Positions 1,070 through 57,140 of a stretch of 64,000 nt of DNA are shown one piece after another. The position numbers and the translations under genes are program-made. Every line of letters begins with the position of its first letter. Positions within the stretch are counted from its first letter, which is position 1. The stretch is taken from NCBI GenBank assembly GCA_035084275.1, contig CM068755.1, positions 7,750,001 to 7,814,000 on the forward strand, in the 5' to 3' direction. The notes below the pieces were generated by a model, which was given only the letters and a program-made list of their open reading frames with translations, searched no databases and was not told the DNA's origin. The DNA comes from Hydrolagus colliei. Its lineage: Eukaryota.

Positions 1070-1405
1070 CTGCTCAAGTGCCAATACGAGGCTCCCTCTG
1101 CTCATCGGGCTCCAGTCTGCTTCACGTCCCACGTCTCAACCGCCTCACCATTGGCGGGCGGGCTGGCTTTCTGCCTCTCCACTCCCATCCTCTGGAAAGC
1201 CATCCCGCAGACCCTCTGCCTCGCCTCCCTTGCCTCCTTTAAGATCCATCTCAAGACCTTCCTCTTCAACCGTGCCTTTGGTCACCCACCTACTCTTAAC
1301 CCTCCCCGCCCTCCACCCCTCCCCCCAACCTGATCCCAACCACCAGCTCGGATGCGGATGGATCCCTGACCGTCCAGTGCCTTGAGACATTCTCCTGATG
1401 TGAGA
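1070..1405 (+). mobile_element. L2 (LINE2) 3' fragment
   Basis: Translates GGLAFCLSTPILWKAIPQTLCLASLASFKIHLKTFLFNRAF, the typical L2 ORF2 C-terminus, followed by a C-rich 3' UTR and tail stem-loop. Related copies at about 13140-13330(+), 19180-19400(+), 22050-22255(+), 27130-27330(+), 40590-40815(-) and 47890-48270(+). Confidence 0.8.
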
Positions 1406-1602
1406 CTGTGTAATAATAATAATAATTCTTGCATATGATACAGCACTTTTCACATCTTCTAGACGTATCAAAGCGCTTCACGGAATATACTGTAAAGTGA
1501 AGTGACTGTATATTTGTGGGCGAAAATGCCTATGTTGTTTTTGAACCCACAACCGTTTTGAGCCAGAGCTGAGAGAGCTTATCAAGTGGGACAGAGCCTG
1601 CA

Positions 1603-1610
1603 CTGTGTGT

Positions 1611-1641
<31 letters not shown>

Positions 1642-1703
1642 TTGCCAGGCCAGGATACGGAGCCTGTGAGTGTGTGGGGGTGGCGGGGGGTTGGTAGGCC
1701 GGG
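1603..1703. repeat. (GT)n microsatellite plus poly-G/G-rich tract in TUBGCP4 intron 1
   Basis: A (tg)n run followed by about 16 G and further G-runs. Confidence 0.9.
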
Positions 1704-1772
1704 AGCAGTAGAAGGAGGCGGTGGCTCTCTGAATACCGGGCCCAGTTGCCATGACTCCGGATCCGCTCTCAC

Positions 1773-1850
1773 CTGAAGGCCGCTGCGTTTGTTCCAGTTG
1801 AAGACGCTGCCCGGGTAGCCGCTCAAGGCCAGGAGCAGCTCGTGTATCAT
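1773..1850 (-). CDS. TUBGCP4: Gamma-tubulin complex component 4, coding exon 1
   Basis: ATG at 1850, MIHELLLALSGYPGSVFNWNKRSGLQ (GCP4 N-terminus), donor CAG|gtgaga at 1772. Lies in a CpG-rich region. Confidence 0.96.
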
Positions 1851-8390: not shown

Positions 8391-8498
8391 CTACAAACAT
8401 TTGAGCAGGAAGAAATTGCAGCCAGTGCTTCTGGGACAGTCACAGAGTTTTCCAATCCTTGCTCCCTTCCTCACGGCACATTGTTCTCCGATGTCACA
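8391..8498 (-). CDS. CARTPT: CART prepropeptide paralog A, exon 3 (cysteine-rich domain)
   Basis: ttcccag|TGTGAC...TTG TAG translates [35 protein letters not shown], with the six CART cysteines. Confidence 0.96.
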
Positions 8499-9107
8499 CT
8501 GGGAATACACAAAAAAAGAGCATTGCTGGGGAGAGGTTTATGTGGTAAGGTGATGTTTTGATCTCCAATCTCCAGGGTATAAATTTACAGCAATGGCTAA
8601 TTAATTTGTAAATACACTGCAGACAATGGAATTGAAACACAGACAACTTTGATGCAAGTTACCTGCTCTTCGGTCATGAAAAGTAAGTCTCAGGGGTGGA
8701 ATTTCTAGAATTAGATAAAATGCTAAAGAAAGTAAACCCCGAACAATAGTTTGAGCTACACCAGGGTAGGGATACAGGAGACTCTAGATTCCGGATTTTG
8801 AAGTGAAAATTTAGCACAGGCGCCAGGAAGTACTTCTTTAAACAGAGTGTAATTAACAACTTGAATGGGTTACATGAAAGGGCTGTAGAGGTCAGGGCAC
8901 TGGATAGTTTATGGTGTAATGGCAAGAGGCTAAGATGAATATTCTGAAGGATAAGATAAAAAATACTGAAGCGCCTTCTTCATCCAAACCTCTTCTGAAC
9001 TTTACACATCTCATTCTCATGTATAATTCTCTTTGGGGACACAGTAGATTTCAATTAGTTAGCACTGTTCTGTAGATCATCATTGTACTCTAGCAAGCAT
9101 CAGTATA

Positions 9108-9435
9108 TAATAATAGTCCTTGCATTTGGTATAGTGCCCTATCATGTATTAAAGACATCTCAAAGAGCTTTCCAGGATATACTGTAAAGTGGTTTGACTG
9201 TATATTTTGTGGGCAAAAAGTGGCAGCCAACCAGGCACAGCAGTATCCCACAAACAGTCGTGAATTGAAGTGACCAATTTATTTTTGGATTTTTTTTTGA
9301 AGGAACTATTATGCCCCGAAAAGCAATCCACCAATTGACTAACAATTGACTACTTACTGCTGGGAAAACAGAGACTTGTGGCGTAAAGAAACTTGTCCAG
9401 AAATCGAACCCACCTCACTGGCGAGGCACTGAGGA
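9108..9435 (-). mobile_element. tRNA-derived SINE with Deu-like core and L2-type tail
   Basis: Same family as the copy at 34151; body gggatactgctgtgcctggttggctgcc and (TTA)n tail. Confidence 0.75.
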
Positions 9436-11082
9436 CTCCACATAAAAATATAAGTGTGAAAGGAGTGAAGTACACTCTAGAGAGGTTATACTGCACCACT
9501 CTGTCTCTTGTTGGGAACAAAAGTAGCTTATTACTATTGTAAATGTCGATTCCTATCTATCAGAATTACTCTAGATAACTGGGGAAATATTAAAATAAGT
9601 TAGTTCACATAGAATAACACGTGGGACCTTTTAATTTCCATTTCTGGTGAGTAATTGGAACATTTGTCTTCCTTCTGGAAACAACTCACTTTTACAGCAC
9701 CTCAATGTTGAACGATCTCAAAAGAGTTTGACTTTGACGCACTGTCAAGTGGAGAGACAGCTTTTTTTTTCCCCCAGGAAAAAGAGTCACAGCCTGTTTT
9801 GAGCAAAATAAAGTCCCGCAAACAGCCATGGATAAGTCAGAATCTCATCCCCACCCCCCGCCACCCTGTAAATAAAACATGTTGATATCTGTCCAGTCAG
9901 TCACAGGCATCAACCAAAAAAACTACAGAGAGAGCAAACGTATCCTTATCCAGGAGTGAGGTTAGTAACAGGTTGTAATGTACACGAGGGGATGATGCAT
10001 AGATTCCTAATACATGCAAACCACAGTCCCCATACACCAACTCACATAACGCCGGTCAACACGTAACATTTCCTGTACAGTATACACCGCAGGTCTTGGA
10101 ATGGACCATCCCCTCATCAATCCAAGTGTTTTAAGGATCAGTGATGTGGCGATCAGCAGGTGAGATCTCTTTCCCCAAACGTGTAACGTGCAGGTCGTAA
10201 AAAGACACGAATGATTTGCACCCCGGCCGGTTTTATTCTGTTAAAATCTTTGCTTCGTTCAGCAGAATAAATTCTAAGTCAGTGTCATTCAAAACCTGGA
10301 CTCGTTTTCTAAGTGTTAATACAAGATATCCGACTGTTCATTTACGCTCCGACCCTCGTGACCGAAAGATATTATTGCTCCTTTGATTTGATTAAATCTT
10401 AGAAACGTAGACATGTCTGCACGAAAAGGAAGGAGGACGCGTCCAGCCCGTGGTATGTGTGTGTGTGTGTGTGTGTGGTGTGTGTGTATGTGACCAGGAA
10501 TAGCGCCCATTGAGCATTGCATTTAAACACTGTGCGACTCTAATAGGAAGTGTGCAATCTAGTTTAACACTGAACTCACATTTGGAGCAGATAGAAATTG
10601 GACGAGGATAAGTTGGAAGTAGGTGCACCTGTCTGAGGTGATCTCCTGCTGAGATCTAAACATGGACTTGTTACAACTCGGGTGACATTGACGAGGGTAG
10701 GACCTACACTTTCACCAAACTCCAGTGTCCCCCAGATGGACGCAGTTTTATTTTGAAAATGTATTCCCATCGTATTGCCCTTCGAAGGTTTCTCCTGCAT
10801 TGCGAGATGGAGTGAGAAGGCTGTGTGAATGAAACTGAAGTTCGACTTGACTAGGATTATTTTCCTTCCCGGAGTCCTTCCCGATCAAGCCTCTGGGCAA
10901 CTCGCCGCACTCGCCGTGTTTCTGCCGCTTGGGACGTAACTCGTTTACTGCGTTAAACGCCCGAATTTGCGGTCACATCTCTAAATGAAGTTATTTGGGT
11001 TTGGTTCAAGAATGCGGGAAAAGGCCGACCAAAGCAGTGTCCGCCTCTGCACCTGTCACATTGCTGCAATTCACGAGATTCC

Positions 11083-11140
11083 CAGAGAGAGAGAGAGGGA
11101 GGGAGGGAGAGAGAGGGAGAGAGAGGGAGGGAGGGAGGGA
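11083..11140. repeat. (GA)n/(GGGA)n purine microsatellite in CART-A intron 2
   Basis: Directly visible. Confidence 0.9.
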
Positions 11141-11180
11141 AGAAAAAATGAATGAAAATATAATGAAAGGTTGTCATTAC

Positions 11181-11264
11181 CAGTGGGAGTTGTCCAAACT
11201 TCTTCTCCCAGGTAGGAAGCCTTTTACTCTGCAGTTTTTCGAGCACTTCTTGAAGAGCTCCCAG
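11181..11264 (-). CDS. CARTPT: CART prepropeptide paralog A, exon 2
   Basis: taacag|CTGGGA...CCACTG|gtaatg, 84 nt, translates LGALQEVLEKLQSKRLPTWEKKFGQLPL with both KR and KK sites. Confidence 0.96.
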
Positions 11265-11755
11265 CTGTTAACAAGAGAGGGAAATGGTTAGAATCCACTC
11301 TGCCCCCCACCCCCCACCCCCTCCAAACACTTAGACAAGACTTATCGTTTCGTGAACGACTCTCTAACAAAAAAGTCTGTCATTTTTGTCTGTCTATAAA
11401 CCGTATAAAAAAAACTTGTTTTGGAGTACTGCGCGTTTGTTTACCTGCGAAATTCTAAAGCAACACAAGTTCTCAACTAATCTAAGAGTATTTTCACCGA
11501 TACTGAGATTTGATCCGGGCGGGACATATCCTCTAAAGTGCCTCTGAATCTCTCACTTTCTGTGGTTTGCAAATCAACTGAAACCTTCAGAGAGAAGCAA
11601 ACTGGGTTAAATAAGACTCATTAAAAACGGCGACTCTAACCTCCCAACCAGCCTTTCAAATTGACTTTCTGTCAAGCAAAATCAACCCAAGACAGAGAGC
11701 TATATAGTAACGCGAGTTGATAGACAGGCAGCGACTGCAACATATATATACAGTA

Positions 11756-12367
11756 NNNNNNNNNNNNNNNNNNNNNNNNNNNNNNNNNNNNNNNNNNNNN
11801 NNNNNNNNNNNNNNNNNNNNNNNNNNNNNNNNNNNNNNNNNNNNNNNNNNNNNNNNNNNNNNNNNNNNNNNNNNNNNNNNNNNNNNNNNNNNNNNNNNNN
11901 NNNNNNNNNNNNNNNNNNNNNNNNNNNNNNNNNNNNNNNNNNNNNNNNNNNNNNNNNNNNNNNNNNNNNNNNNNNNNNNNNNNNNNNNNNNNNNNNNNNN
12001 NNNNNNNNNNNNNNNNNNNNNNNNNNNNNNNNNNNNNNNNNNNNNNNNNNNNNNNNNNNNNNNNNNNNNNNNNNNNNNNNNNNNNNNNNNNNNNNNNNNN
12101 NNNNNNNNNNNNNNNNNNNNNNNNNNNNNNNNNNNNNNNNNNNNNNNNNNNNNNNNNNNNNNNNNNNNNNNNNNNNNNNNNNNNNNNNNNNNNNNNNNNN
12201 NNNNNNNNNNNNNNNNNNNNNNNNNNNNNNNNNNNNNNNNNNNNNNNNNNNNNNNNNNNNNNNNNNNNNNNNNNNNNNNNNNNNNNNNNNNNNNNNNNNN
12301 NNNNNNNNNNNNNNNNNNNNNNNNNNNNNNNNNNNNNNNNNNNNNNNNNNNNNNNNNNNNNNNNNNN
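11756..12367. other. Assembly gap (612 N) within CART-A intron 1
   Basis: Run of N. Confidence 1.
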
Positions 12368-12390
12368 GAGAGGTGAAGGAAGAGACTGAC

Positions 12391-12534
12391 CAGTTCCTTT
12401 TCGCTGGAAAGAAACGTATCTTTAGGGTAAAAGTTTCTCAGAGATCTGGACTCGAGTTCAGAGACTTCAGCCCCGCAGGTCAGGGCCATGAGGCTGCACA
12501 CACTGATCAGCAGGAGTAGCCGAGTGCTGTCCAT
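12391..12534 (-). CDS. CARTPT: CART prepropeptide paralog A, exon 1 (signal peptide); full precursor 111 aa
   Basis: accATGg at 12534, MDSTRLLLLISVCSLMALTCGAEVSELESRSLRNFYPKDTFLSSEKEL|gtcagt. The symbol denotes the family; one-to-one orthology to mammalian CARTPT is not established. Confidence 0.94.
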
Positions 12535-12543
12535 GGTGCTGAG
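12523..12543 (-). promoter_or_regulatory. RE1/NRSE (REST site) overlapping the CART-A start codon
   Basis: CTCAGCACCATGGACAGCACT matches the consensus TTCAGCACCATGGACAGCGCC at 18/21, with both half-sites intact. Confidence 0.85.
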
Positions 12544-12632
12544 GATACAGAAACCACTTTCAATCTGTAAAGGAAAGGCAGAGTCGACTCCTCTCAACCC
12601 GAGTAACTCACGGATACCGACGATCCACCAGC

Positions 12633-12639
12633 TTTTATA
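12633..12639 (-). promoter_or_regulatory. TATA box of CART-A
   Basis: TATAAAA about 100 bp upstream of the ATG. Confidence 0.75.
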
Positions 12640-15600
12640 CATATATCACCGTGCGCCTGGTGTATCAATATTGACTCGCTCCTCCCATGTGGCATGTGTG
12701 TGTGTGTGGACTGGTTTGCAGAGCGTGGGCGGTTATTTTCCCTTTGAAATGAAATGTGCATCAAGAATGCCTCTTTTCCCATTCAGCAAATAATGAAACC
12801 TCTCAGCTCAGGAGCTGGAGGCGAAGTTCGTCATCTGCATTACTAATAATGGGACTTGATGGATGGCGTGTAGAACATGCTGCAACCTCTGCTATTATAT
12901 ATATATAAAGAAAAACTGTGACACAAAGACTTGATTTGCATCGAATGCCATTCTGGCAAGTTCAGTTTGGTACTGTTGCATTTTCATTATGAGGTTAACA
13001 CCTAAAATGTTCATTTAGTTTTTTTCTAAGCAAATATTTTTTAACAATAATAAGTTTTCAAAGCAGAGGAACACACACACACAGATCAAGTACTGAATGT
13101 TTCCTTTCTTCTGGTTACCGATTACATTCTAGGCTCTACTCAAGGCTTCTGACTTGAGGTTCCTCCTGTTCGACCACGTTTTTGGTCACCACACTAACCC
13201 CCCACCACCCTCCCATCTGCCCTCCACCCCACCTGACCCAATGCCCCAGCTCAGGTCCAAACTCCTTGTCCAGCGCCTTAATGACTCCTGGCGCAAAAGG
13301 TACTATACACATGCCGTGTGTTATTGTTCTGATGTGATTATTTGCTGAGAGAAAGAGCAGAATCTACAGAGAAATGGGCGACTGTGTGAGCGAGCACTGC
13401 AAATTTATCACGAGGACACTCCATTTGATATTTTGCGAGTAATTCTCAGTTTAGGTCTGATTTGTTTTCACCTTTCCACAGTTCCCTGTTAATTTAGTTA
13501 AATTTGATGCTAATCCAGATTTACACGAACATTCTCAAATGAAGTGGCTGGTTATTGAGTAAACAATTATACAGATAGCTACTAGTTTGTTTATATAACA
13601 TATCCTTTATTTCTAATCCAATGTTTTGTGAAGCACTATGATGTATGTTTTTACATGTTGTATAGGTGTGACACAAACGTTAGCTATGACTATTCTTATA
13701 TGGCAAAGCTTATTAATGAGTTTAGGGTTGAGCATGTTTCCTAGATAACATATTTTATCAGTTCATTCGCGGTTTATATACTCGTCCAGTTTTTATGGTT
13801 TGTGCATTGATTACTTCAGACTGTCCTCCAATGTGCACTTAGTGTTACAATTGCTAGAAGAAAAACCAGGGAATAGATTAAAAGGATTTTTTGTGTGTGT
13901 TTAGAGGATTGTAAGTGTTTGGAATTGATTGCAATGGGTAGTTATTAAGGCTGGATCAATGGAAGCATTTCAAAGACAACTGCCGGATAAACATCTAAAC
14001 AGTAAACATGGGAGAGTTGGAAAGTGGGATTAATAAAGGAAATGGATGATTTGGCATTGTAGAGAGCAATGGAACGGACTCTTATTATCCCTCTGCGCTT
14101 AAAACATCTGTGTTTTTATATTAGTAATATCTTTATTGGAAGGAATGCATAATCCTGGACACGTAGTTGGTTGTTAACCCCAGGCTGTTTAGCTTGCTGA
14201 TGAAATAGGGAAATAATTATGTTGAGGAAATCACAATCTGAAACCATCACTTATTCAGTAATTCCCACCTTGTATAGCGAAACACTGAGGAATGTAATTG
14301 GTGCCAATTGAGGGAAGAGAGAAGAAAATGATTTTAGATTTAGATGGACCTGAGGAACAGAGAATGCAACATTCTGCATGTTTTGTCAAAGAATCTAACT
14401 TGTGTGAAACAGCCTAAGAGGCTGGTTGCTGGGATACAGTCAAGGAACTGCTTAGATCCCTTGTAGGTAATTATAGTCTTTTTGATCTCCTGGTTAAGCA
14501 TCAAGTTTCTGAGCATCCAGATTTAAGTATTCGCTGCATGGAACAAATATTGCTAAGCCTAGCAACGTTGTCAGTGTTAAATAAGATTGAGCCACAATCC
14601 TTTTGAAATCCATTTCTTGAGGTTCTTAGGATGGAAAACTCAATTTCATTCAATCTGTAAGCCATGAAGGCTTTGAGGACCATTCAAATATCATATTTTA
14701 CATTTACATCAAATTTCGGTCTTGCTAACAAACAAAGTCACATTTGGGCTCTGACTGAAATCTATATCAGCAAGACATGAGTATCAAAATAAGTCCTAAA
14801 TTTAGCAGAAAAGTATGAACTAAAGCTTAGTGGTCTATCCACTTGAGAAGTGTAAATTGAATGAAACCAAAATATATTGTGGAGTGACAGTAAAAATGTA
14901 CCCCATTTGCCAAGAGAGTTATTTCTTTTGCACGAGACAAGGGGTTTACAGCTCATGAACAGCATGAATCAAGGGAGAAGAAAGCAGAGGTTTTAATGGA
15001 GAGACAGAGAGGACGTGATACTCCAAATTCCTCTGGTCTTAGCCTAACAACCAGTATCCTAACATATACCATTGTTCAAAATGTTGGTAAATTCTCCAAA
15101 TTGTATAATTTAGAAGCCAGTTTTCTACTGTTCTTAAAAGAAAACAGGTTTCCATAATAAAGCTCAATTTAAGGATTTTCCAAAATATTGCTGAATCTTA
15201 AAGTTTGAGACTTAATTTGGTTAGATGGGTTGTACCATTCTTTAGACTCACCAAACCAAGCTGCTGAGAATTCCAATGATGTTGGTTTAATCTGTTTGGT
15301 ATGGAGTGCACCACACTTCTGACAGACACAACCCCATTTACCTAATCTTGGAGGTTCAGGCACAGGTTGGGGAACCCAAGCTGTCCAATGAGGGATGACT
15401 GGAATTTTTACCAGCTACACCCATGCAAATTATTGTTGCCAATTATTGTGGCAATATTCTTGCTCTTAATCCATCTAGACCAATTTCCAAACAAATCAAA
15501 GAAAGAAAGCCTTTTTGCTGCAGAAATCAAGTATATACTTTTTAAGAATTGCATGTTTTCCAAAGTACAATGGGGTTAAGTGCTCTGAGATGCTGCTTCA

Positions 15601-18600
15601 TGCAAAGAACACTATGTAAATTCAAATTGTTGTTATCCCTGTTGAGGCTTTGACTTGCAGGAAAACAGGGCCAAGCATGAAAAAACCCAGCCTCTGTGAC
15701 TGATCTGCCCATATAAGCTTGTTAATAAGTTAGGCTGGCTAGGTCATCAACAGTCCTTTGGAGTACTGCATACCTGCCATGCTCATTACAAGACTTTCAA
15801 AACCATCACTAAGCCATTACGATATTCCATTGCTGGACATGTCATCTCGGAGGTGCTCCAATGTACTGTAATCTATTATACCAGTGATGGTCTCTTGAGA
15901 CAAATTGCTTCCAGATACCGGAAACATCCATTTCTTAATTTGGAAATCTGTTGAGAAATATTACAAAACTAATCCCATTGTACTTTGGAAAACATACGAA
16001 TCTTAAAAATGTGCTTGATTTCTTTAGTAAAAAGTATTTCTTTCATTCTTTCTTCTTTCTTTCTTCCTTGATTTGTTTGACAAGTGCAATGAAAGTAAAA
16101 TATAGATGTGATAAGACAGTGTCTTTTTATAGTGCATACTGAAGGAGAGAGATCTCAACTCTTATTGTTAAGTGTAACCCCCCAACCACTGATTTTAGCT
16201 CCACGGGTGGTCATTCACTTTGCAAACAAAATATTTTTAACCAGAATTAATTACAAACTGCTATGAGTGCTCCCAAATAATTGCTAGGTGTATACATTTC
16301 TTCCCACAATGATGCATTTTTGAAACGACAAAATAATGCAAATTTATTCATCATCACCCACAGTTCCTAAAAACTTTGTGCGCGTCATGGATTGGTTAAA
16401 AATGGCTAAAGAAAATATTTCAGTGGGGTCTAAAATGTGATAATGCTATGGGATTCCTTAATAAGAAAATGTGAAGTATGTCAATATAATCTGTGGAAAC
16501 TCTGCTCTAAAACAATTGACATGTATTTTCAGTTACTGGAATGATGGACTGCCAATTATCATAACAATTTCACACTCAGATTTATTTCTAAGATCACCAG
16601 TTGGCTTCTCCTGAGTTGCCTCCAAGGCAACATGTATAGTAATGGAATATCAGAATTCAGTTTAATCCTTTTGGTGTTCTTGTTAGTCCTGTTCCTGAGC
16701 TAGGTAATCAATAGTACTCTATGGCACTGTTGGGAGCAAACTAGCCAGTTTAGCTTCTTAGTGGGACTTGAAGAATTCTTTCTACTTGGCTCTTGTTAAT
16801 CCTGCAAGCCAGAATCGTAATGGATAGGGGTGGTCCCAACTTGATGAGCAGAAAAAAGAGTGTCAATGTTTGTAATCATCTGTGTGATTTTAGCTGGTGA
16901 ACTCCAGCAGTACCCCAATGGACACTCTGGGGTCATAAAGCCTTAGCTTTTCACAACTTCTGCCATCCTCTTGAACAAAATGAGTGCACATTCCACACCT
17001 GACGAACATAAGTATGGTGAAGAGTGATTTGTCAGATAGCTTGTGATTAAGAGAAAACATCATCATGTCTAGGAATGGAAAATAACATTATGAAAACACA
17101 ACAAGGCAATTGCTAAATGCATTTAGTTATTTTTAGCAAAATAATATATCTCTTAATGTACAATGAATCATTGGATCAAATTTCATACAGCCCACCCAAT
17201 ATCTACTTTATGTACCCATAGAGAATTTTTCTTATTGGATGGATTATTCGCATATTACTGCATAAAAGATAATGCTTTGACATTCTACTTCTGTCATGTT
17301 TAATAAAAGTCTTTAAAGGTTAAACTTCTGTATGCATTACATATTGAGAGGAAGTACAGCTTTGTCCTGATGCTTTTTAATGTGCTAAACTCCAGGTAAA
17401 TGCGCATATACGTAGCACATGGAGGGCTTATGACACACAGTATTGTGAGTTTCAATGTCACTTTAACTCTATGGTAAATTATGTCAATATTCTGCTTTTG
17501 ATGACTACACTAATAAACGGCCTAAAAAATTGGGGTCAGAGTATTAACAGCAATTCCAATAATTAATTCAGTCACTCAATAATTTAAGATCTTTGAGCGC
17601 AATGTTAAAAATGGAACTGACTTTTAGATTTAATACAATTCATGCAACATCATGTTGTAAAGTGGACAGTCTTCATTTACAACAACTATAATAAGTTGCA
17701 CTTGTACAGTGCCTTTCACATAGAATTAATTTCTTGAAGTTCTTTGCAGAGACATTAGGGAGCACTTTACCCCCTGTAAAGTGCTCCAATGTCTCTGCAG
17801 AGAATTGCACAGAAAGAAGCAATTAACAGAGGTTTTTAAGAGAGATTTGAAGTCTGCGAGAAAAGAAGCAAGGGAAGCAGATTGTACGAGCAAAGTGGCT
17901 GAAGATTGATCCTGTAGTTTCACAACAAGGGAATCAGATGAATAATGTCCTTTGGACTAATTCTTCCATAATCCCTACCCTCCTATTACAACTTGCATTT
18001 ATATAGCAGCCTTCATGCGAATAGCACATAACAGTGTGGTTTTGACCCTGAGGTGAAAAGAGAGAGGTGTCCAAAGGAATGGTCAAAGAGGAAAGTATTT
18101 TCCTCATTACAGTATCAATCTGTTTCTTAACTGAGTCTAACATCTTAAGAAACTTTCCTCATTATAGTATCAATCTGTTTCTTAAATTAGTCCAACTTCC
18201 TGCCTCAATCACCCTTTCTGATAACACATTCTTGTCATTATTTACCCTCTGTGTAAACAAGTATTTCTCATGTCTGCCTTGAAATTGCAACCCTAATCAT
18301 GTAACTTCCTGTTCTTCTCCCTTAATACTCCCACTTAAAGTATTATTCTGGGTTTACTTTCTTGAACCCATTTAGAACCTATTGCCATCAGGGCAGCAAA
18401 GATATTATTAATGTTCAGAGCCTCGACTCTAATTTCAGCAAGACACAACTACACAATTCATTATGATGTCTGGTCACTTTCCCAAAACCTTTCCTCCATC
18501 AGAGAAACAGGGTCATGTTTTTGAAACAAGTTAGGTTGTCTAGTTGGAGCACTGCAAAAGCTCAGTACTGCTGTTGATTTGCGTTGAATGTGCCTCGAAG

Positions 18601-30097: not shown

Positions 30098-30440
30098 GAG
30101 CCCTGTAGTTCAGTGGTTAGAGCACTCACCTCACAAGCAAGAGACCTGGCAAGGTGAAACGTTGGGCAAGATTCCTTACTCCACACGCCTCTGTTTACTT
30201 AGCTGTAAATAAAAACCCAGTTGTTAGTCAGTTGGCAGATTGCTTTTCTGGGGAAACTAATAATAATAATTTGATCACTCAATGCATGACTATTGTGGGA
30301 CACTGCTTTGTGCAATTGTCTCCCACATTTTGGCCACAAATATATAGTCAATTTACTTACAGTATACTTCTGCGAAGCACTTTGAGATGTCTAGAAAATG
30401 CGAAAAGCGCTATATCAAATGCAAGGATTATTATAATTAC
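30098..30440 (+). mobile_element. tRNA-derived SINE
   Basis: Head cctgtagttcagtggttagagcactc, conserved body, tail aagcactttgagatgtc...aaaagcgctatatcaaatgcaaggattatt. Confidence 0.8.
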
Positions 30441-33400
30441 CATCTGAAAATTTGACAGGTGAGGTCTTAACAGAATGCACCAGTTTAAATTTTTTTATGA
30501 TTCAAAATTAATCAATTTATATTTTAAAAAATCAATTGTTGCACAGGGAATTAGATTCTATATTTAAATCTGGCAATGTCGATGCATGGACAAAGCTCCT
30601 GAGATGAACTCTTAGTATTTATAAATTCCTCTAAATCCTTGGATTAAATAATAGCCTTGTAACACTTCTGGTGCTTTCCATCATTTCACTAGTCAAATGC
30701 CCAAAGAGTTTTTTCTTGGAGTGCATCATTTCTGCTCACTGGACTAAAAGATATTTATACTGCAAAACAGAAAACATTTCTACTTTGTCCACCAAGTGTC
30801 AGCATTGAACAGTTCCAGGCATAATACAGTCAGGTGCAAAATAAAGCTCCCTTTATTTTACCCCAACAATGTGCTATTGTCCAACCTTAAAAGAGCACCC
30901 CTTGGTGCATCAGTGCGACAACTTCTATTTTATATTTCTCATTACAGCCATTGCCCAAACTATTCTATGAGAGATTATCAATATACAGGCAAATTATGGG
31001 CAGTTTTGTGCTGTGAAACCCAGGCCCCAAACTCATTTCATTTCAGCTGGAGCCCATCAGTCCAACGGAATGATGAACCTTTCATGCCACAAAACTAGAC
31101 TGAATTCAATCTCATTTGTGAATGGCATTTGTGAGGTGTCTCTCTCACTGAAGTGTCATGTTGGGGTTGTGGTGGGGGGGTGATACGGTCTAGTGCCCTA
31201 GTTACTTGAGATTCCCCCATTTTGTCTTCATCCCCATCAAAGACTAAATTTATGATGTACTCAATCATCTCCATAACTAAATATGTTATAAACTTTAGTC
31301 TTTGCAATCTTACAACCAACCAATTACATAGCTCACTGAGCATAATTATGTTGAAAGGCCACCATTGACTTGAAATGGAACAAGCCATTTAAATCAGAGC
31401 AAGAAACCTCCAAGCTATTTCTGCAATCAAATGACATATCGATTTCCAACTGCATTTGCTGGGCATATCATTCATGTAAACTGCACATTAATTATGGAAA
31501 CATAGTCAGGAGGGAAGTAACAATTCAATAAATAAGTGTGAATGTTGTTTTCAAGCTTTCTCTGAACTGTATTGTTTTATTTAATAAAGTCCCACTTAAC
31601 CACGTAAAGTTAATATTACAAGGTTACATCCAAATTAATGCGACTCAGAGCAACCAAGGCCATGTCCCAAGCAATGACGATCCTGTTTGGCTTCGTGAGG
31701 TGTAAACATGCTTTCAGTCTAAAATCCCTTGTGGTTAGTGTGGCCATAGCTGGACGAGTGCCATTCAATTTATAAATGTATTTCATTACTTTAATGAAAA
31801 TGATCAATTATGTAAAAATGGCTTGGAGTTATTATTTCCTGGTGTAAAGTAATTATTTGGAACATAACTTTATCACTAGTGTCCACTGAATAAAGTGGGA
31901 AAATTCTACTTGCGTTTATCCATAGCCCTTTGGCAATTGGAATTCAATTGTTGTCTCTCATCATGAAAACCAGCTCCGAGACCAAATGAATGTCACTGTC
32001 TGAACTAATTCTAATTCAAGAATCAGCCTTGTCCCGCAGCAATCCAGCAGTAATCTTCTGTGGTCCTACTCCTCAGCCTGGGTGTCCCATTCCATCTCTG
32101 TGAAACATTTTGAGATTTTTTCTCAAGTAAGGTGCTACAGTATATAAGTAAAAATGTTGTTGCACGGTTCTTGAAAATGGGTAAGATTTTGTAAAAATAC
32201 GCCATGTGACCTGTTCACTAGACAAACATCTCTGGCTTTGCCCTAAAGATAAAAGAGAATATTAAATATGACTAGAAAATGATGACGTTATTTGAGTTCT
32301 TTATGTCGGAGAGAGATTATCCGTCAGGAAATATGCAGGATGTGCAATTGATGAGCAGACTGAGTAGAACCTTCACAGCTTTGATTTCAACAGGTTAGTA
32401 AATATGGCACAAGTGTTATTGAATGATTCCCAACTAAATGTTATAAAAGAGTTATAAAAGAGAGGGTTATTTTGTATGAATATTACTGTGCAGACTAACT
32501 GCTGTGATAATTGAAATGTGATAGTTTTGAACACAGAGTTTGATAGTTACTGGATAAATATCTCACATTGAATTTTTAATATATCAGATATATAATATCC
32601 TAATATCCTCCTAATATCCTCTCCCATGGATGGAATTTAATAACCAACACTGAATTGTAGCCACTTTGAAAACTGTGAACTATGATTATTAATCCACAAA
32701 CAAAAAACTTGATTAATAAAAACATTTACCTAAAGAGGAACTCCTTGTTCTGTGATCCGATGAACCAAATAGCCTCCTTCTACACTGTAGATTTTTATGT
32801 TTCAACAACACTGCTGAGGGGATTTAGCTTTGATTGACATATCATCTTGTAGCTCCTCCCTGTTAGATTCACAGGAATGCTGCAATCACCAGGATTTAAT
32901 TGCTATCGGATTGCTCCACATTTCCAACAGACCACCAAGGCTATGCTTTCTCCATGTTTTCCTCTATCCCTTGGAGGATGTCATGCCTCTTCATGTTGAA
33001 AGTTAACCTGTCAGTATTTTGCCTAACTTTTTTCGAGTGAGTACCAGGAGCTGAGATGTGCTGCACTTGTCAAAGCTTGTGTGTTGTTTTCTGTATTATT
33101 CAGTGTCAGTATTGCAAAGCTTTCCCTTGCAATTCACTCCCCATTCTTTTCTCAAGTCGCTTACTCATACTGGGATACAATCCCACAGGCACCAACCACC
33201 CTCCCATTCCTCACCCAAAGTGGCCATTCTTCATGTGAGGGTCAGCAGCTGAAGCTTTGCTAACAGTCAAAGTTTAAATGTTGATTAGATTAACCTTTGT
33301 TTTGTCAGAATAAAAAGAAAAGGGCACAAAATAATAACCCAAATCAATAGCTTCGTTAATGTAAATTCACAAGTGTTATCTGTGAGCGAAATAAATAGCT

Positions 33401-34150
33401 TCATGTTTACCAGCAATGTTGCAATCTCTGGTGCACTTTAAATTGGAAAGTTCTGGAACTTTCTGTGAGTGTTTTCAGTTGTATAAAACAAATTGGTTTC
33501 AAGGAGCAGAGGCTTATGATTGATATCTTTAATTGCAATCACCTTTAATAAACTAACTAGTCAGACTTGGCATCATTAACATTTTTGAAATATGTGGAAT
33601 AACTCCTATATTTCTTCCAAGAAATTCTGAACTACCAGGGATCACTCGGTTGAAGGCATGTTGGCTTGGCATATGTTTACACCATTCATACCACAAATTG
33701 TATCTTGTATTTTCAACCTTCCTTTTGCACAACATTCATAACTTCTCCTTATTGTTGTCTTTGAATTAGTCATTTGAGGTATAAGTGCAATTAGTTGAGA
33801 AATTAGCTGAAGTTTTGAAAAATCCTTTCAGAACGAATAAAAAATTAATTTTAATCGCATTTTTGGCATTGGCCTTATTAGCATCAAAATAACATCTAGC
33901 CAAAACAAGCTGCTAGCCTAATTTATTATTGATGCCATTTATTAGGAGCGGCTATTAAACTGTCAGTTTGTTGACTGAGAATATATTAACTTTCATGGCC
34001 ATATTAAAATGTAAAATAGATGAACTAATGTCAAACCTGTGGTGGCTTTCCCTTCTTGCTGGTTTCAAATATATTTAAAGATGCTTCCGGGCTATTTTCT
34101 CCATATACTATCATTGTGTAATTTTAGATTTAAATGAATGATTTAAAATC

Positions 34151-34818
34151 GTTCCTGTAGCTCAGTGGTTAGAGCACTCGCTTCGCGAGCAAGAAACTTG
34201 GGTTCGATTCCCAGTAGGGTGAAATGTTCAGCAAATTTCCTTACTCCACGCACATGTTTACCAAACAGAAAATAGGAACCCGATTGTCAGTCGATTGTCA
34301 GATTGTTTTTCCGGGGGCAAAATTTCATTAAAATAATGAATTGGTCCTTCCAATCCACGACTGTTTGTGGGACACTGCTGTGCGCAATTGGCTGCCACAT
34401 TTCACCCACAAAACATAGTCAATTCACTTTACAGTATATTCTGTGAAGTGTTTTGAGAGGTCCCAAAAGGCAATGGATGGTTTCCAGCCTATGTCTCAGC
34501 TTTCTTAGGCTCTTGTTCGCTCTTTGTGACTGTATTGTTATTCCACACTCCTCTGTTTACATAACAGTAAGTAGGAACCCGGTGGTTAGTTGTTTGGGGG
34601 TTTGCTTTCCGGGAAATAATAATCCCCACAAAAGAAATTTGAGTATTCAAACCCTGACTATTTGTCTGACACCACAATGTGCAATTGACTGCCGCATTTC
34701 GCCGACAAAATATACAGTCAATCCACTTCACGGGATTTTCTATGAAGCTCTTAGAGATGTCTCAATGACATGATAAAGCACTATATCAAATGCAATGATT
34801 ATTATTATCATTTATTAT
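34151..34818 (+). mobile_element. Two tandem tRNA-derived SINE copies (first with intact Pol III A/B boxes, second headless)
   Basis: A box TAGCTCAGTGG (34158) and B box GGTTCGATTCC (34201), body ctgtttgtgggacactgctgtgcgcaattggctgcc. The second copy at about 34545-34818 ends in (TTA)n. Confidence 0.85.
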
Positions 34819-36543
34819 TAGCCTGAGGTAATCTATTTGAATTTTGCCTAACTTCTTCCAAGTTAGCACGAAGAGCGAGATGTGTTGTATTTGTTACAGC
34901 TTTATTCATCTTGTGTTTTGTTTTCTATATTATTCAGTGCCAGTAAAATCTGCAGTCTATTGCAATCCTTTCTGCCTCCAATTCACTTCCCTTCTCTTGC
35001 CAAGTTCACTTTCCTGAATACCAATCAGGAATCAGGAATTGCTCACTGCAGCCTAAAGGACTTGTGGAACAGGAGCTGAACAATGATTCTTTCCAATGTT
35101 AAATGAAAATTACAAAGGAAAATAGTTAAAAGTTTGGATAAAATATCAGTTTGCAATTTCTATTCAATTCTTCCATCCAGCCAAGTGGTAAACCCTCTAA
35201 ATAAGAAACAAGAACCAGGAATTTTAGAACTTCTTATCACATCAAAACATCTGTAAAGGCTGCACCAGTATTTATAGTCAACTATAGAAACATTTTTTAT
35301 TGGAGAGTATGGCACCTATTTACACCACTGAGTTCCATATCTACATAGGAGACTACTGGTCAATTAATGTGGAGGAACATCAGAAGAAACAGACTTCACT
35401 TTTAAAAGAGCATCATGTGATCTTTAACAGGCAGGTGGTACCTTGGTTTATGGACTGGTCCAAATGATGATACCGTGCAGTTTCATGTGCAGCCAGTAAC
35501 TGTGCAGCCCTCTGCAGTACCTACTGTACATGGTTCAGCTGAGGCTGCAACGGGCTTGAACCCACAATTTCTGGAATCAGAAGTAGAAGTGCTACCAACA
35601 CATCCAAACTGACGTTAAAGCAGGTGCATATGTTAACTTGATAACATCATCAAATAATGATAATGAACTTCATGTAAAACTCTATCTGAGTCATTGTCCA
35701 TGCCAGACAATGTTGCAGCTTCATAAATCCTGTGCAAACGTTACAGGGTTACATTTGCTAATATTTCCCTTCCTGTAAAATCTCAAACAAATGTGACGGC
35801 AATAGAGTATCTCCTGTTTAAATTTAACTCCCTGATGCTAAAGTTTCTTGATGCTTGTAAAAATGTGACTGATTTCCATCATTTCTGAAAAATGTAATTT
35901 ATCAAAATACTTCTTGCATTTGATATTGCTTCTATCATATTGAAATGGCTTAAAGCATTTCGGTAATTACTGCTACTGGTAGTGCCTGTGGTTTTTGAAA
36001 ACAAACGTGGCAGCTAATTTGTGTGCAGCAATGTCCCACAAATAGCCAGGAGCTGATGATCAGTTTAGCTGGAACACCTTTATCTTTTCATATAGTATCA
36101 TGGATTCTTTAATGTACACCTGAAAAGACGGATGGGACTTCAGTTTAATGTCTCAGAATAAAGACAGCACCTATGACAATGTGCCAGTAACAGGGTGTGG
36201 TTGTATACCACGCTTGGGCAAACTATAAATTCCAATTTTAGGTATTTGGGTAGCATTTTTGCCTCGGTTAAATGGTTGCGGTTGAAAGCCTATATCTGAG
36301 AGTTCTTAATCCAGGTTGATATTCAATGGAGAGCGAACTATTATTGTTATTAACTATTATTAACTATAACTATTGTTAGAGATACCATTCTTTAATGAAA
36401 ATATTACAAATCCAATTGCACAACTTTGAAAAAGAGCAGGGAGCTCTCCCTCTATCGTAGCCCAAATTCCATCCGCACCCAAATCATAAAATAAAATGTA
36501 GTTGTTCATCTCTTTACGGTTTGTGGGGTGTTGCTGGCGCATA

Positions 36544-36638
36544 CTTGCACACATTGCATTATGTGCAATGTGTGCAAGGGCACACATTGCACATAATGAG
36601 ATAGTGCAATGTGTGCCCTTGCACTATCTCATTATGTG
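36544..36638. repeat. Four overlapping perfect inverted repeats
   Basis: Arms of 15, 19, 21 and 20 bp, checked base by base (see findings). Confidence 0.9.
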
Positions 36639-37954
36639 AATTGCTTTCGAAATGTATGAATGTGTTGAGATGCTCTCTCAAATGCAAGTGTTGTATTATC
36701 TATAATCTGTTGTTAATTTAAACTGTAATGATTTGAATTACACTTTTCAACAAATCTGCACAGAGGCAATTTTTTTCGCAATAAATTTTAATGGAACTTC
36801 AATTATTCCTTAATTATTCAGCGCCTTGGGACATCCTCCTGACGTGAAAGGTGCTCTACAAATGTAATTTTGTTTGTTGTTGTTATAATTGGTACTGCAG
36901 TGAGTTTATTAGAAAAATCCATAGCTTTCCACGGTTGGGTGCATGTCTGTCCAAAGATCAGCAAAAGTTCATAAATGTGTAAAGCAATGGGTTATTTACT
37001 GATTATTGGTGTATCACAGTTACGGTTTGTGCTCAAGAAAATGTTTGGAAAATCTATTTTAAAACATGTTTGTCTTTAGTACTATAGTTAATTTGGTTCA
37101 ATGATTGTATTACAATTATATGGGAAAGATCAGTTGCCATTTCTTACTCATAATTTGAACAAATTATTTTCCTTATATAACCTGAGACCCAATATTTCTC
37201 ATGATCTTCGCATAACAATGTAAAAATTCTCATATTTGGTCTTAATTTGGAAGCTATTTGTCCCCAATCCTTAAAGAGAATTTAAGTCTTTTCCAATATT
37301 CCATAATATCTTTCATTTTAAGAAAATGGTCTTGAGGGTAAAATCATGCAAATTTCAGATTTCTGATGTTTCATGTTTAATGCTCAGGGACCTTGCTTAA
37401 CTTAGGTCTCTAGAATAATGAAATGCTGCACTTCCAGAGAGAATGCTGTCGCAAATGTCTTATTCACTGTAATGTGCACAATTGCAATATCCAACATTCA
37501 TAATTAATGATGTGGCTAATAATTTATTGAGTAGTTCTTAATTCATTACTCATCTATCAGTCAAACTAGTTACAGCTAAATGAAACAGAGTTCTAAATCT
37601 CTGAACCTGATCTGTATTACAGCACGTTCAAGGCTGTGAATGCTTACAATAGAGTCGGGAGGAATAATAATCCATGATAGAACAACAGTTAAGGACAATT
37701 TTAGTACAGATACCAGAAAGTATTTATTTTCACAGACCTTCATCAAATATAATGTAAAACCTAACCCTACTTAATACTTAGGGTAGCTTCCCCGGAAAGG
37801 TGTTGTGGATTGGACCTAGAACTCATTTAATTGCTTGAAGCTGAAATGGTGAGTTGCATTTTCTGTAAATATGAGATCAAATAGATTAAAGCGCTTTCAT
37901 CTTCCAAACTTCTTTTTATCATCTAATGAGAACTCCATGTACTTTGATAACAAT

Positions 37955-38295
37955 GATGTAATAATACTCCTTGCACTTGGTATAGCACTTTAATATGTCT
38001 TCCAAACGTCTCAAAGACCTTCATCAAATATAATTTGATAAACCCTGTATATTTTGTGGGTGAAACGCAGAAGCGAATTGCACACAACAGTGTCCCACAA
38101 ACAGTCATGATGATCAATTTTTTTTAAAAGGAATTTTTAACCCCAGAATAGCGATCTACCTATCCTACTAACAACCCAGATTCCCACTTAATTCTAGGTA
38201 AAAAGAGTGTGGAGTAAGGAAACTTACCCAATGTTTTGCCCTGCCGTGAATTGAATCCAGGTCTTGCGAGGCAAGTGCTCTAACCACTGACCTAC
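37955..38295 (-). mobile_element. tRNA-derived SINE
   Basis: Reverse complement of the 34151 family; head near 38290. Confidence 0.8.
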
Positions 38296-38891
38296 AACAC
38301 TCTGCAATGCTGAATATGCATTTTTCATATTAACAGCATGTTCTAGACATGGTCGTGATTCGCTAGGGGAGCTCATTACCCTCCCATGACTCCCTTCAAG
38401 ACCCCATAGGCAATTAATGGCTAATTGTAACCTCAGAAAGAGTACAGCTCGCAATGATCAAAAGTGGATTCCAAATCAATGAGAAATGCGATACAGTAGC
38501 TACTGCAAACATCAACCTCTGAGGGATTTGAAGGGTATTTTAGATATAGTATTCAAACAAAATAAATTATGTCTCATGCAAATTTTTCCGAAGCAGATCC
38601 TGACCCACATTCCGGGTAACATTCAATCTAAATAATGCAAGACAGGCACATTTAGCACTTTATTAGGCATGAAATAGTTACATTTGTTTTAATGGTAAAA
38701 TCAAATATGTTTCTCTCCAGGAAAGTAGCATAAGTCACATCAGCACAATAATACTTACACAAGAATGGATGGCACATTGTCAGTCTCAAATGTACATTAG
38801 TTTCATATTAAATATGTGGACTAATTGTATCGTCTATCTTGAAGGTCTTCTCTTGGATTTTCAAAGGTTGTCTTTTCTTTCATCTGTTTCA

Positions 38892-38999
38892 TCAGATGCA
38901 TTGGAGGAGGAAGGAGTTACAGATAGTGCCTCTGGCACAATCGCACAGCTTGCCAATTCTTGGACCTTGCTTAATCGCACATCTGTCCCCAATATCACA
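38892..38999 (-). CDS. CART prepropeptide paralog B, exon 3
   Basis: atttttag|TGTGAT...ATC TGA translates [35 protein letters not shown], with six CART cysteines. Absent from the ORF track. Confidence 0.95.
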   Translation of the reverse strand, partial: CDIGDRCAIKQGPRIGKLCDCARGTICNSFLLQCI

Positions 39000-39402
39000 C
39001 TAAAAATCAATATAATCAAATATTATTCATTTGTAATAAGAGGAAAAGTAATATTCAGTCAGATGCCCCCTTTTAGTACGATTTTGTTTAAAAGCGCTAT
39101 TTGAGGGACAATATTAAATATAAATTTTCATTTATTCATATTTACTCATTTTACTAACTGACTTGAATGAGGGACCAAGGCTCATAGTGTCAGACACCAT
39201 CAAGGTTAGAAGGTATTGGAGAGAAGGTGAAACAGGTGCTAAGCTAGAAAATGCAGCGTGTAGACATTGTTTGAGAATAGGAGAATTGAGTTCTCCTATG
39301 AAACTCTTCATAGTTGAGTAGCCCACTTGCATTCTGTCCAGGCTGTCTAGGCACTCATGGAAACATACTCCCCCAACACGTTTAATTTAGCCTGGAACTG
39401 AC

Positions 39403-39480
39403 CTTAGGGATCTGCCCAGCTTTCTTCTCATAAGATATGGCATTGTGGAGTTTGCCCAGTATTTCTTCCACTGCTTCAAA
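39403..39480 (-). CDS. CART prepropeptide paralog B, exon 2
   Basis: tcgacag|TTTGAA...CCTAAG|gtcagt, 78 nt, translates FEAVEEILGKLHNAISYEKKAGQIPK. Confidence 0.94.
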
Positions 39481-40236
39481 CTGTCGAGAAATAAGTTTAA
39501 AAATAGATATATATATTTAAAAAATAACACTTGTAATTTCCAAACGGTTACATCCCATTATCAATGAGTAAAAAAAAACACGTTTCTCTCCATAACAGTA
39601 CTCAGTAATATGCTTAATATCCATTTTGAAAACATGTCAATCGTTTACATTGTATTTCTTATATGAATGAGGTGTCTCAGTGTTTGAGTTTCCTGGTCTC
39701 AATACACTCTTTTTGTATCAAAAGTTGCAGTCTATCCAAGTAAAATAATTTGTTCCTTCAAAGACCAAACTAATTCACACTACAGTATTATTTTAAATGT
39801 ATAAACAAAATGTTTCAATCGACGTCGGACTCCAAATGTCTATTATTTCCCAAACGTTATGTTCATGTCATCATAACTAAAGTTTCTACAATACGATCCA
39901 ATTGATGGAGTAGTTTACTGAACTGTAGTGAAATAAATACTAGTTTTTATATATATCTTTTAAAAGTTGGGAAAAGAACTTGTCATGAATACAACCTCCG
40001 AAACTCTTTGGATTGTTGTCCTCATTCGGACAAAACTTTCACACAGAAGGTAAAGCCAATTGAAATGGAATTACTTGGAAGAATTGTGTTGGGCAAAGAC
40101 ATTGGAAGAGAGGCAACCTAGAGAAAACTCCATACTATAATATGCATTAAAGGTAGACAGGCAATCGCCCTGTATTAGAATTTTTTTAAATAAAAAAAAA
40201 ACGAATGGAAGGAGGTAAACATGAAATTGAACTGAC

Positions 40237-40377
40237 CAGTTCCTTCTCAGCAGAAGCGTTGGGAGTTTGGGCCGGATAGTCTTCAGCTGGGCTAAGCTCT
40301 CTGGACGATTGCCCCTGGCAGAGGAACAAGAGCAAACTCACACAGAGGAGGCGCCCGAGCAAGCTGCAGCTATCCAT
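40237..40377 (-). CDS. CART prepropeptide paralog B, exon 1 (signal peptide); full precursor 108 aa
   Basis: accATGg, MDSCSLLGRLLCVSLLLFLCQGQSSRELSPAEDYPAQTPNASAEKEL|gtcagt. Same EKEL|gtcagt junction as paralog A. Confidence 0.93.
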
Positions 40378-40386
40378 GGTGCTGAA
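40366..40386 (-). promoter_or_regulatory. RE1/NRSE (REST site) overlapping the CART-B start codon
   Basis: TTCAGCACCATGGATAGCTGC, 18/21 to consensus, with one mismatch in the GGACAG half-site. Confidence 0.7.
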
Positions 40387-40439: not shown

Positions 40440-40512
40440 CTTATATAGGCACATTAGACCTGCCTGGCCAACAGCTCCGGGAGCTAATGAATATGGACTG
40501 CAGTGTGATTGG
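40440..40512 (-). promoter_or_regulatory. CART-B core promoter: TATA box and CCAAT box
   Basis: TATATAAG at 40440-40447 and CCAAT at 40508-40512, both on the minus strand. Confidence 0.7.
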
Positions 40513-57026: not shown

Positions 57027-57140
57027 GTATGTCTACTGAACCTTTCCAACATTGTTTTCATTTGTCTGATTACAGAGTATTAAAAAGACTGCCTACCATG
57101 ACTTCTCTTTTTAACAGTGAAGCAAAAAAAAAAGCATGTG

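Follow-up and report, generated by a model that had tools for sequence, protein, structure and literature searches.

Linked CART3 and CART4 neuropeptide genes of a chimaera, a probable ancient tandem pair with RE1-like sites predicted at the start codons

The window analyzed here, a 64,000-nucleotide stretch of the Hydrolagus colliei genome, holds two intact minus-strand CART genes 26 kb apart, referred to below as A and B, with TUBGCP4 and an intronless kelch open reading frame on their left and a TPR gene on their right (Table 1). Gene A (12534-8391, its stop codon ending at 8391) has three coding exons encoding 111 aa, and gene B (40377-38892, with its ATG at 40377) has three encoding 108 aa. 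Each of the four introns is of the GT-AG class and in phase 0, exon 1 of both genes ends in EKEL followed by gtcagt, and exon 3 of both starts at Cys I and carries six conserved cysteines. The initial annotation, which had described two complete same-strand three-exon CART genes with identical intron phases and this junction, is thus confirmed, and its coordinates are exact. The three-exon layout is common to all vertebrate CART genes (PMC13364575), so the shared structure is nothing special to this pair; an exon that starts at Cys I of six cysteines belongs to the definition of the family in PMC13364575.

Table 1. Features of the window, in order of position.
Feature	Position	Strand	Remarks
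TUBGCP4 coding exons 1 (1850-1773) and 2 (590-462)	462..1850	-	gene runs past left end of window
Intronless BTB-BACK-Kelch ORF, 595 aa, calicin-like	2692..4479	-	Pfam and Atlas cluster match
CART3 (gene A) exon 3	8391..8498 (108 nt)	-	six-cysteine core and stop
CART3 (gene A) exon 2	11181..11264 (84 nt)	-	dibasic KR (62-63) and KK (69-70)
612-N assembly gap, CART3 intron 1	11756..12367	.	run of N
CART3 (gene A) coding exon 1	12391..12534 (144 nt)	-	predicted signal peptide and pro-region
RE1/NRSE-like site across CART3 ATG	12523..12543	-	17/21 to canonical NRSE, predicted
TATA-like box ~105 nt upstream of CART3 ATG	12633..12639	-	motif scan, without chance control
CART4 (gene B) exon 3	38892..38999 (108 nt)	-	six-cysteine core, ends QCI (codon CAA)
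CART4 (gene B) exon 2	39403..39480 (78 nt)	-	single KK (66-67), without KR
CART4 (gene B) coding exon 1	40237..40377 (141 nt)	-	predicted signal peptide and pro-region; matches C. milii P0259
RE1/NRSE-like site across CART4 ATG	40366..40386	-	17/21 to canonical NRSE, predicted
TATA-like box ~70 nt upstream of CART4 ATG (CCAAT ~-135)	40441..40447	-	motif scan, without chance control
TTC23-family TPR gene, ten coding exons	50405..62595	+	start codon uncertain; family name putative

Exon 3 of each gene matches the Pfam CART family PF06373 far above its gathering score of 27 (gene A, E 1.9e-19, 70.1 bits; gene B, E 1.3e-18, 67.4 bits), and exon 3 of B also matches mammalian CART in PDB 1HY9 (E 3e-14). 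Exon 2 of A is likewise above the Pfam cut-off at 35 bits, whereas exon 2 of B is below it (20.2 vs 27 bits), and a search with exon 1 of B alone returned 17 candidates, none at E<=10. Both open reading frames are complete, with dibasic sites, six cysteines and a hydropathy peak at the N-terminus; in A the hydrophobic stretch covers approximately residues 4-20, with the cleavage site placed by eye. If processing follows the pattern of mammalian proCART, cleavage by prohormone convertases at KR and KK would release peptides of 48 and 41 residues from A, and B, cut at KK alone, would yield a single peptide of 41 residues. The two predicted 41-residue peptides have 26/41 residues in common.

The sequences of A and B are otherwise well separated. 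Identity is 19/42 aligned residues in exon 1, 11/26 in exon 2 and 23/35 in exon 3, bearing out the divergence of signal and pro-regions noted previously, and 53/103 over the whole protein (48% for B to A); at 15 of the 23 identical exon-3 residues the codons differ. When the window was compared with itself by blastn, the neighborhoods of A and B had nothing but repeats in common, tblastn found no third CART copy, and a Pfam search of the long stop-to-stop frames from 4.6 to 50.2 kb, 144 in number, returned only exon 2 of A and one sub-threshold DUF, with no other Pfam gene found between the flanking genes.

Of the two flanking names proposed in the initial annotation, TUBGCP4 is secured by matches of its exons 1 and 2 to GCP4 in the PDB (E 7e-11 and 3e-17); the human gene lies at 15q15. 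The gene on the right is confirmed as a TPR gene, open over 411 codons with no internal stops and with one U12-type AT-AC intron (51582-52083), and it is putatively named TTC23 rather than TTC23L; the searches showed TPR features only, with sub-threshold Pfam TPR matches, and the Atlas search with one exon returned TPR clusters only (recognition 2295, below the mark of 2300). The kelch frame between TUBGCP4 and gene A has the cluster "calicin" as its top Atlas match (score 0.99, 591 aa), and calicin (CCIN) is likewise an intronless BTB-BACK-Kelch gene. Since other kelch clusters score 0.97-0.98, the frame is described as calicin-like and not as an established CCIN ortholog. Human CCIN is on chromosome 9, and the literature searched held nothing usable on calicin in sharks. 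Neither this intronless gene nor the RE1-like sites described below appeared in the initial annotation.

Gene A is 94% identical (104/111) to CART3 of Callorhinchus (C. milii P0002), with an identical exon 3 protein, and 72% identical to coelacanth CART3 versus 55-62% to CART1; the KR and KK sites and the CART3-type C-terminal end are all present. An isoform of this C. milii protein, P0001, is named "transcript 3" in UniRef. Gene B is 88% identical (97/108 aligned) to Callorhinchus CART4 (C. milii P0259). In S1 Fig of PMC4436185, P0015 corresponds to the coelacanth CART3 row and P0259 to the elephant-shark CART4 row, from which P0259 differs at one residue. Accessions exist already for the C. 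milii orthologs (XP_042198955 and XP_007906583), and the same species has a separate CART gene of mammalian type, XP_007897981. The C-terminal signature of CART4 is given as KCI (PMC4436185), which is not universal (104/112 CART4-type matches), or as a terminal Ile (PMC13364575); gene B has the terminal Ile but ends in QCI (Q codon at 38901-38903), and its exon 2 is two residues shorter than that of C. milii CART4. Glutamine at that position occurs in 0/120 related matches, and the K to Q replacement is a one-base change that may be either a variant or a sequencing error.

An unrooted tree of 59 rows and 110 columns, with cyclostome and proto-CART sequences left out and with all CART2 and CART6 rows being unnamed proteins labelled by eye, places A as sister to C. 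milii CART3 (99/94) and B with C. milii CART4 (100/99) and then with shark CART4 (99/95). CART4 joins CART5 (99/99) and CART3 joins CART6 (91/96, unstarred). CART peptides are short, which limits resolution: monophyly of CART4 is weak (89/39), and CART3 is not monophyletic with respect to CART6. The tree and the identities support the assignment of A to CART3 and of B to CART4, neither being orthologous to mammalian CARTPT, and placing A with CART1 is rejected (p-AU 0.011). The concern that a CARTPT label would hide non-orthology was therefore well placed, and a plain CARTPT label for either gene would mislead. CARTPT, a single gene near MAP1B in mammals, has family, gene structure and cysteine core in common with A and B and is reported to be under REST control; it is nevertheless a paralog.

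The same strand, the 26 kb spacing and the identical junction hexamer and start context could suggest a recent local duplication, specific to holocephalans or chondrichthyans, after which B diverged rapidly. This explanation is exceedingly improbable: A and B as sisters are rejected with p-AU 1.2e-8, A and B with the C. milii pair as one clade with p-AU 1.3e-41, and the identity of B to the CART4 proteins from sharks, coelacanth, gar and frog is 60-73%, compared with 48% to A.

The pair itself is known. In PMC4436185 (Cai et al. 2015), CART3 and CART4 form a syntenic pair that chicken and human have lost; the paper also described a second pair, CART5/CART6, named MAP1A/1B/1S as paralogous neighbors, and proposed local duplication plus 2R. 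The idea in the initial annotation that the pair is a product of whole-genome duplication (WGD) lost in mammals is thus supported, but this paralog history is not new. The known pair, which corresponds to cart1b/cart3b of PMC13364575 and to zebrafish cart3 and cartl on chromosome 7, agrees with the pair in the window in paralog types, linkage, three exons, six cysteines and dibasic sites (KR and KK for CART3, KK alone for CART4). TUBGCP4 and TTC23, which flank the pair in the window, are not mentioned in the text of PMC4436185, and the literature searched held nothing usable on the two together with CART or MAP1A. The window therefore adds a second holocephalan example of the CART3/CART4 pair, with named flanking genes. 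MAP1A/CRTC3-type paralogon genes, the flanks expected of a CART3/CART4 locus, would lie outside the window. Among 21 same-named species with usable values, 18 have the same longest-contig size for CART3-type and CART4-type matches (exceptions are Anguilla, Atractosteus and Anarrhichthys), although a common chromosome does not equal adjacency; in Albula the locus tags are consecutive (AGOR_G00166140 and AGOR_G00166150). The CART5/CART6 pair (cart3a/cart1a) is a second tandem of a B-type and an A-type gene at a separate locus, with CART5 ending in RCY; the coelacanth copies, cart5 and cart6, are separated by ~56 kb on a single strand, and there, as in the window, the B-type gene is the upstream one. 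CART5 and CART6 are absent from the three genes that PMC13364575 lists for C. milii.

The grouping of B with CART5, the rejection, if modest, of a CART3+CART4 clade (p-AU 0.023), and the same-order pair in coelacanth support the earlier suggestion that the A/B tandem is older than the WGD that made the block. Tandems that instead arose after 2R, separately at 3/4 and 5/6, with the likeness of CART4 to CART5 due to convergence or long-branch attraction, are very unlikely. The tree program does flag the CART4+CART5 join as a meeting point of long branches, and the AU rejection of CART3+CART4 is only p 0.023. However, in a tree of exons 2-3 from which seven long or odd rows were removed (52 rows) the groupings are unchanged and the CART4+CART5 branch has 100/98, the gene order is equal at both loci, and the clades 3a/3b and 1a/1b were named independently in PMC13364575. 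The CART4/5-type matches also share loss of KR, the dibasic long-form site being present in 0/120 of them versus 107/112 named CART1/3-type matches.

Our reading is that the tandem duplication is older than 2R and probably younger than 1R. As the tree is unrooted, tandems before and after 1R give identical topologies, and an origin before 1R, followed by loss of the B-type copy next to CART1/CART2 and from cyclostomes, is an unlikely alternative that nonetheless deserves weight. CART4+CART5 is the longest internal branch and carries the midpoint root, the hagfish core has a B-like GPR motif (by eye), and Fig 8 of PMC4436185 leaves the timing open. Midpoint rooting, however, is sensitive to rate, and such an origin costs at least one extra gnathostome loss in addition to loss in lampreys and hagfish, whose one or two CART genes look A-type: all those shown have KR and end in CL (read by eye). 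At 1R, the proposed pairing of 15-like and 1q-like blocks draws on lectican subfamilies and on chromosome positions. In a passage of PMC7269912, chicken 28 is a CLGC descendant whose partner is not named, and a literal reading could pair the blocks differently; on the pairing of chicken Z/10/25/28, the literature searched held nothing usable.

Comparison of the start regions with the canonical NRSE sequence (taken from PMC3529185) indicates an RE1-like site across each ATG, with both half-sites matched and a 2-bp spacer in A and B. These are the two best positions in the window, where the scan gives 2 matches versus 0.02 expected and 0/100 shuffles reach 2; a looser pattern gives 8 matches versus 3.8 expected. 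From -8 to +9, A and B are identical at 16/17 positions, compared with 12/52 upstream and 18/51 downstream. In the introns, of which 612 bases are missing from intron 1 of A, the scan showed no further strong RE1 for either gene. In the searched literature we found no earlier report of a start-codon RE1 in CART genes, and no start-region DNA was found in the supplements of PMC13364575.

The interpretation we favor, to which we assign a probability of roughly 0.8, is that A and B are orthologs of CART3 and CART4 from a tandem older than 2R, that they encode predicted secreted three-disulfide peptides, and that their expression is likely REST-restricted at the start codon. A single ancestral CART gene would have undergone tandem duplication, an event most parsimoniously placed on one of the copies left by 1R; 2R would have doubled the pair to give CART4-CART3 and CART5-CART6, and the other 1R copy would have given the single genes CART1 and CART2, with only CART1 kept in mammals. 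The RE1-like element would have been duplicated along with the gene and kept in both copies, where it is predicted to silence both genes outside neural and neuroendocrine cells and to constrain codons 2-3. A and B, which have 26/41 residues in common and of which only A has the long-form KR site, would form a natural ligand pair; the CART receptor is still disputed (PMC13364575).

Such sites may also account for the conserved start M[DE]S, found in 52/63 and 77/99 normal-length CART precursors. We tentatively propose, at somewhat less than even odds, that a REST-binding RE1 at the ATG was present in ancestral vertebrate CARTs as a dual-coding element, that it predates the tandem (1R-2R), and that it imposes the M[DE]S start on signal peptides that otherwise change rapidly. 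It would have been kept in the two chimaera paralogs as well as in CART4 over the range from frog to percomorphs, and its loss in percomorph CART3a and chicken CART2 would mark released expression. In 13 of 15 N-extended CART4 models, mostly of related teleosts, [S/R]-T directly precedes the true Met, as expected from the RE1 left half; the same holds for only 1/6 extended CART3 models, all of the percomorph MQSS type. Chicken primers show CART2 without the motif and CART1 keeping the right half. That the start-codon motif is instead Kozak context plus constraint on the protein (N-terminal processing), with no REST site, appears doubtful. ACCATGG is a strong Kozak context, and the motif is degenerate in the percomorph CART3 models and in chicken CART2, as this explanation would have it. 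Yet the conservation reaches TCAGC (-8..-4) and AGC (+7..+9), beyond the Kozak core, the other nine of the 11 Kozak-like RCCATGG sites in the window have RE1 scores of <=10/21, and PMC10605157 cites control of mammalian CART by REST. A start-codon RE1 would tie an ancient cis-element to the signal-peptide sequence of the different paralogs in a way that is cheap to test.

Three Rfam tRNA matches in the window (at 34154, 45295 and 46580) coincide with the ends of repeats that form a ~300-bp family, and we interpret them as SINE heads.

The two CART genes proposed by the initial annotation, gene A (CART3-type) and gene B (CART4-type), are real and complete. All introns of both are GT-AG and phase 0, and exon 1 ends at EKEL/gtcagt in each. 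Exon 3 of either gene satisfies Pfam CART, and that of gene B matches the human CART core structure 1HY9. The two proteins are identical at 53 of 103 aligned residues, the gene B stop lies 26,357 nt from the gene A ATG, and no third CART copy was found in the window.

Gene A is identical to the Callorhinchus milii CART3 model P0002 at 104/111 positions (exons 2-3 protein-identical), and gene B to the C. milii CART4 model P0259 at 97/108 and to shark CART4 at 71-73%. These identities point to a probable holocephalan source that is not C. milii. In P0001, an alternative C. milii CART3 model from UniRef, exon 2 is aberrant and carries neither KR nor KK, which probably reflects faulty gene prediction. 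These types are labelled CART3 and CART4 in S1 Fig of Cai et al. (2015; PMC4436185). PMC13364575 lists three C. milii genes (1b, 3b and mammal-type M) and equates Cai's cart3/cart6 with clades 1b/1a and cart4/cart5 with 3b/3a.

The tree spans 110 columns and 59 rows, of which two are the window proteins, 37 are named hits and 20 are unnamed representatives; these last, including every CART2 and CART6 row, were labelled by eye against published alignments. Subject to the few columns and a long-branch warning, gene A pairs with C. milii CART3 as its sister (99/94), gene B likewise with C. milii CART4 (100/99), CART4+CART5 split from all others at 99/99, and CART3+CART6 is supported at 91/96; weak points are CART4 monophyly (89/39) and CART3, which is unseparated from CART6. 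An exon 2-3 tree without 7 long or odd rows still gives CART4+CART5 at 100/98. Four AU tests were run post hoc to the tree, on groupings that the initial annotation had itself named as counting against its reading. Rejected were genes A and B as sisters (1.2e-8), A, B and the C. milii pair as one group (1.3e-41), CART3+CART4 (0.023) and gene A with CART1 (0.011), the last supporting the warning that a simple CARTPT label may hide non-orthology.

The proposal of a whole-genome-duplication paralog pair whose tandem duplication is older than that event holds through the CART4+CART5 split and the rejection of CART3+CART4; observation and inference stand but repeat a 2015 result. The simplest reading is a single tandem duplication before 2R, copied by 2R into two pairs. 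According to PMC8302630, 1R (the first early vertebrate genome duplication) is shared by gnathostomes and cyclostomes and 2R (the second) is gnathostome-specific; cyclostome CARTs in the alignment of PMC13364575 look A-type, with the KR site and a CL end. The unrooted tree fits a pre-1R and a post-1R tandem alike, a question that Cai et al. mark as open (PMC4436185); on the simplest reading, and provided that 2R separated the CART3/4 block from the CART5/6 block, a post-1R tandem needs zero gnathostome losses.

Linkage elsewhere was judged by a proxy, the same length of the longest assembled sequence for both CART-type hits of one species. CART3-type and CART4-type hits share this length in 18 of 21 hand-picked same-named species and not in 3, the set excluding Protopterus (capped value), six species missing one value, and Sebastes (names differ). 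In controls, values differ between Pelodytes CART1 and CART4 and between CART4 and CART5 in 3/3 species (Amia, Polypterus, Ascaphus). The result denotes a common chromosome, short of adjacency. Albula's two CART genes have consecutive locus tags, and in coelacanth ~56 kb separates cart5 from cart6, both on one strand, the B-type (CART4/5-like) gene being the upstream one, the same order as genes B and A.

Judging from mammalian and chicken proCART, both precursors would lose a signal peptide and then undergo convertase cleavage. Gene A has dibasic sites at KR 62-63 and KK 69-70, gene B at KK 66-67 only; cleavage would yield 48- and 41-mers from the former and a single 41-mer from the latter, the predicted 41-mers having 26 residues in common. 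This contrast in KR holds across the lineages: 107/112 named CART1/3-type hits have a dibasic site at this position versus 0/120 CART4/5-type hits. Because KR-bearing forms are suggested, in PMC13364575, to be more tied to fasting responses, gene A would be the likelier appetite signal of the two. The gene B C-terminus reads QCI, found in 0/120 related hits versus KCI in 104/120, and may reflect either genuine variation or a miscalled base; the exon 2 of gene B carries a 6-nt deletion relative to C. milii.

RE1/NRSE-like 21-mers span both start codons. Scored against the canonical NRSE given in PMC3529185, they are the top two positions on either strand (next best 15/21); the RE1 core pattern has 2 matches versus 0.02 expected, and a looser pattern 8 versus 3.8. 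Between genes A and B, identity is 16/17 at -8..+9 but falls to 12/52 on the upstream side and 18/51 on the downstream side, and nine other Kozak-like RCCATGG sites score <=10/21. Protein proxies agree with RE1 for CART4: M[DE]S starts occur in 77/99 normal-length CART4/5 hits (52/63 for CART1/3), [S/R]-T precedes the true Met in 13/15 CART4 models with an N-terminal extension (14 from teleosts and one from a frog), and S/R stands at -2 in 14/15 versus 24% background, the rows being related and hence given no p-value. Against RE1, the [S/R]-T pattern occurs in 1/6 extended percomorph CART3 models, and the chicken CART2 primer lacks the motif while that of CART1 retains the right half. Percomorph CART3 models read GT/MQS, both RE1 halves apparently having been lost together. 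Mammalian CART is reported to be under REST control (PMC10605157). No mention of NRSE was found in the accessible text of PMC4436185 and PMC13364575, and of 8 papers returned by a literature search that covered few subscription papers, none concerned non-mammalian CART, judging by title or abstract. The sites would be a modest, unpublished-looking regulatory detail.

Coordinates of features in the window
Feature	Position	Strand	Remarks
Gene A exons	12534-12391, 11264-11181, 8498-8391	minus	111 aa, complete
Gene B exons	40377-40237, 39480-39403, 38999-38892	minus	108 aa, complete
Gene B Gln codon replacing KCI Lys	38901-38903	minus	
RE1/NRSE-like 21-mer across CART3 start codon	12523-12543	minus	17/21 to canonical
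RE1/NRSE-like 21-mer across CART4 start codon	40366-40386	minus	17/21 to canonical
BTB-BACK-Kelch ORF	2692-4479	minus	intact, intronless, 595 aa; between TUBGCP4 and CART3
U12-type AT-AC intron, TTC23-family gene	51582-52083	plus	donor ATATCCTTT; branch point TTCCTTAAC at 52064
33-bp minisatellite	48617-49094		14.5 copies, 92% matches
RFX X-box pattern matches	48379-48392, 48465-48478, 48588-48601		
Dispersed ~300-bp repeat family	9105-9399, 30104-30437, 34154-34812, 37952-38302, 45065-45358, 46330-46645, 49728-49979		
Open frame	45725-46171	minus	148 aa

From left to right, the window holds the TUBGCP4 5' end (backed by PDB matches), the BTB-BACK-Kelch ORF, gene A, gene B and a plus-strand TPR gene of ten exons, which we take to be TTC23. 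The top and nearest Atlas cluster to the ORF is calicin, a cytoskeletal protein of the sperm head that is known mainly from mammals; a literature search turned up no paper on shark calicin. The synteny in Fig 3 of PMC4436185 may name the same flanking genes.

Use of the U12-type intron opens the whole 411-codon frame of the TTC23-family gene. The minisatellite, with a GC-box-like GGGGCGG motif in every copy, directly precedes what is likely the CpG-rich promoter of TTC23. An RFX X-box pattern has 3 matches versus 0.26 expected, all upstream of this gene; since two of them form the arms of a small inverted repeat element, they may have arisen incidentally.

The 148-aa frame, which drew no Pfam hit, resembles the C-terminus of ORF2 in CR1-type LINEs. 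Copies of the ~300-bp family show 67-80% similarity to one another and have tRNA-like ends, where Rfam hits fall at 34154, 45295 and 46580; they likely represent a tRNA-derived SINE.
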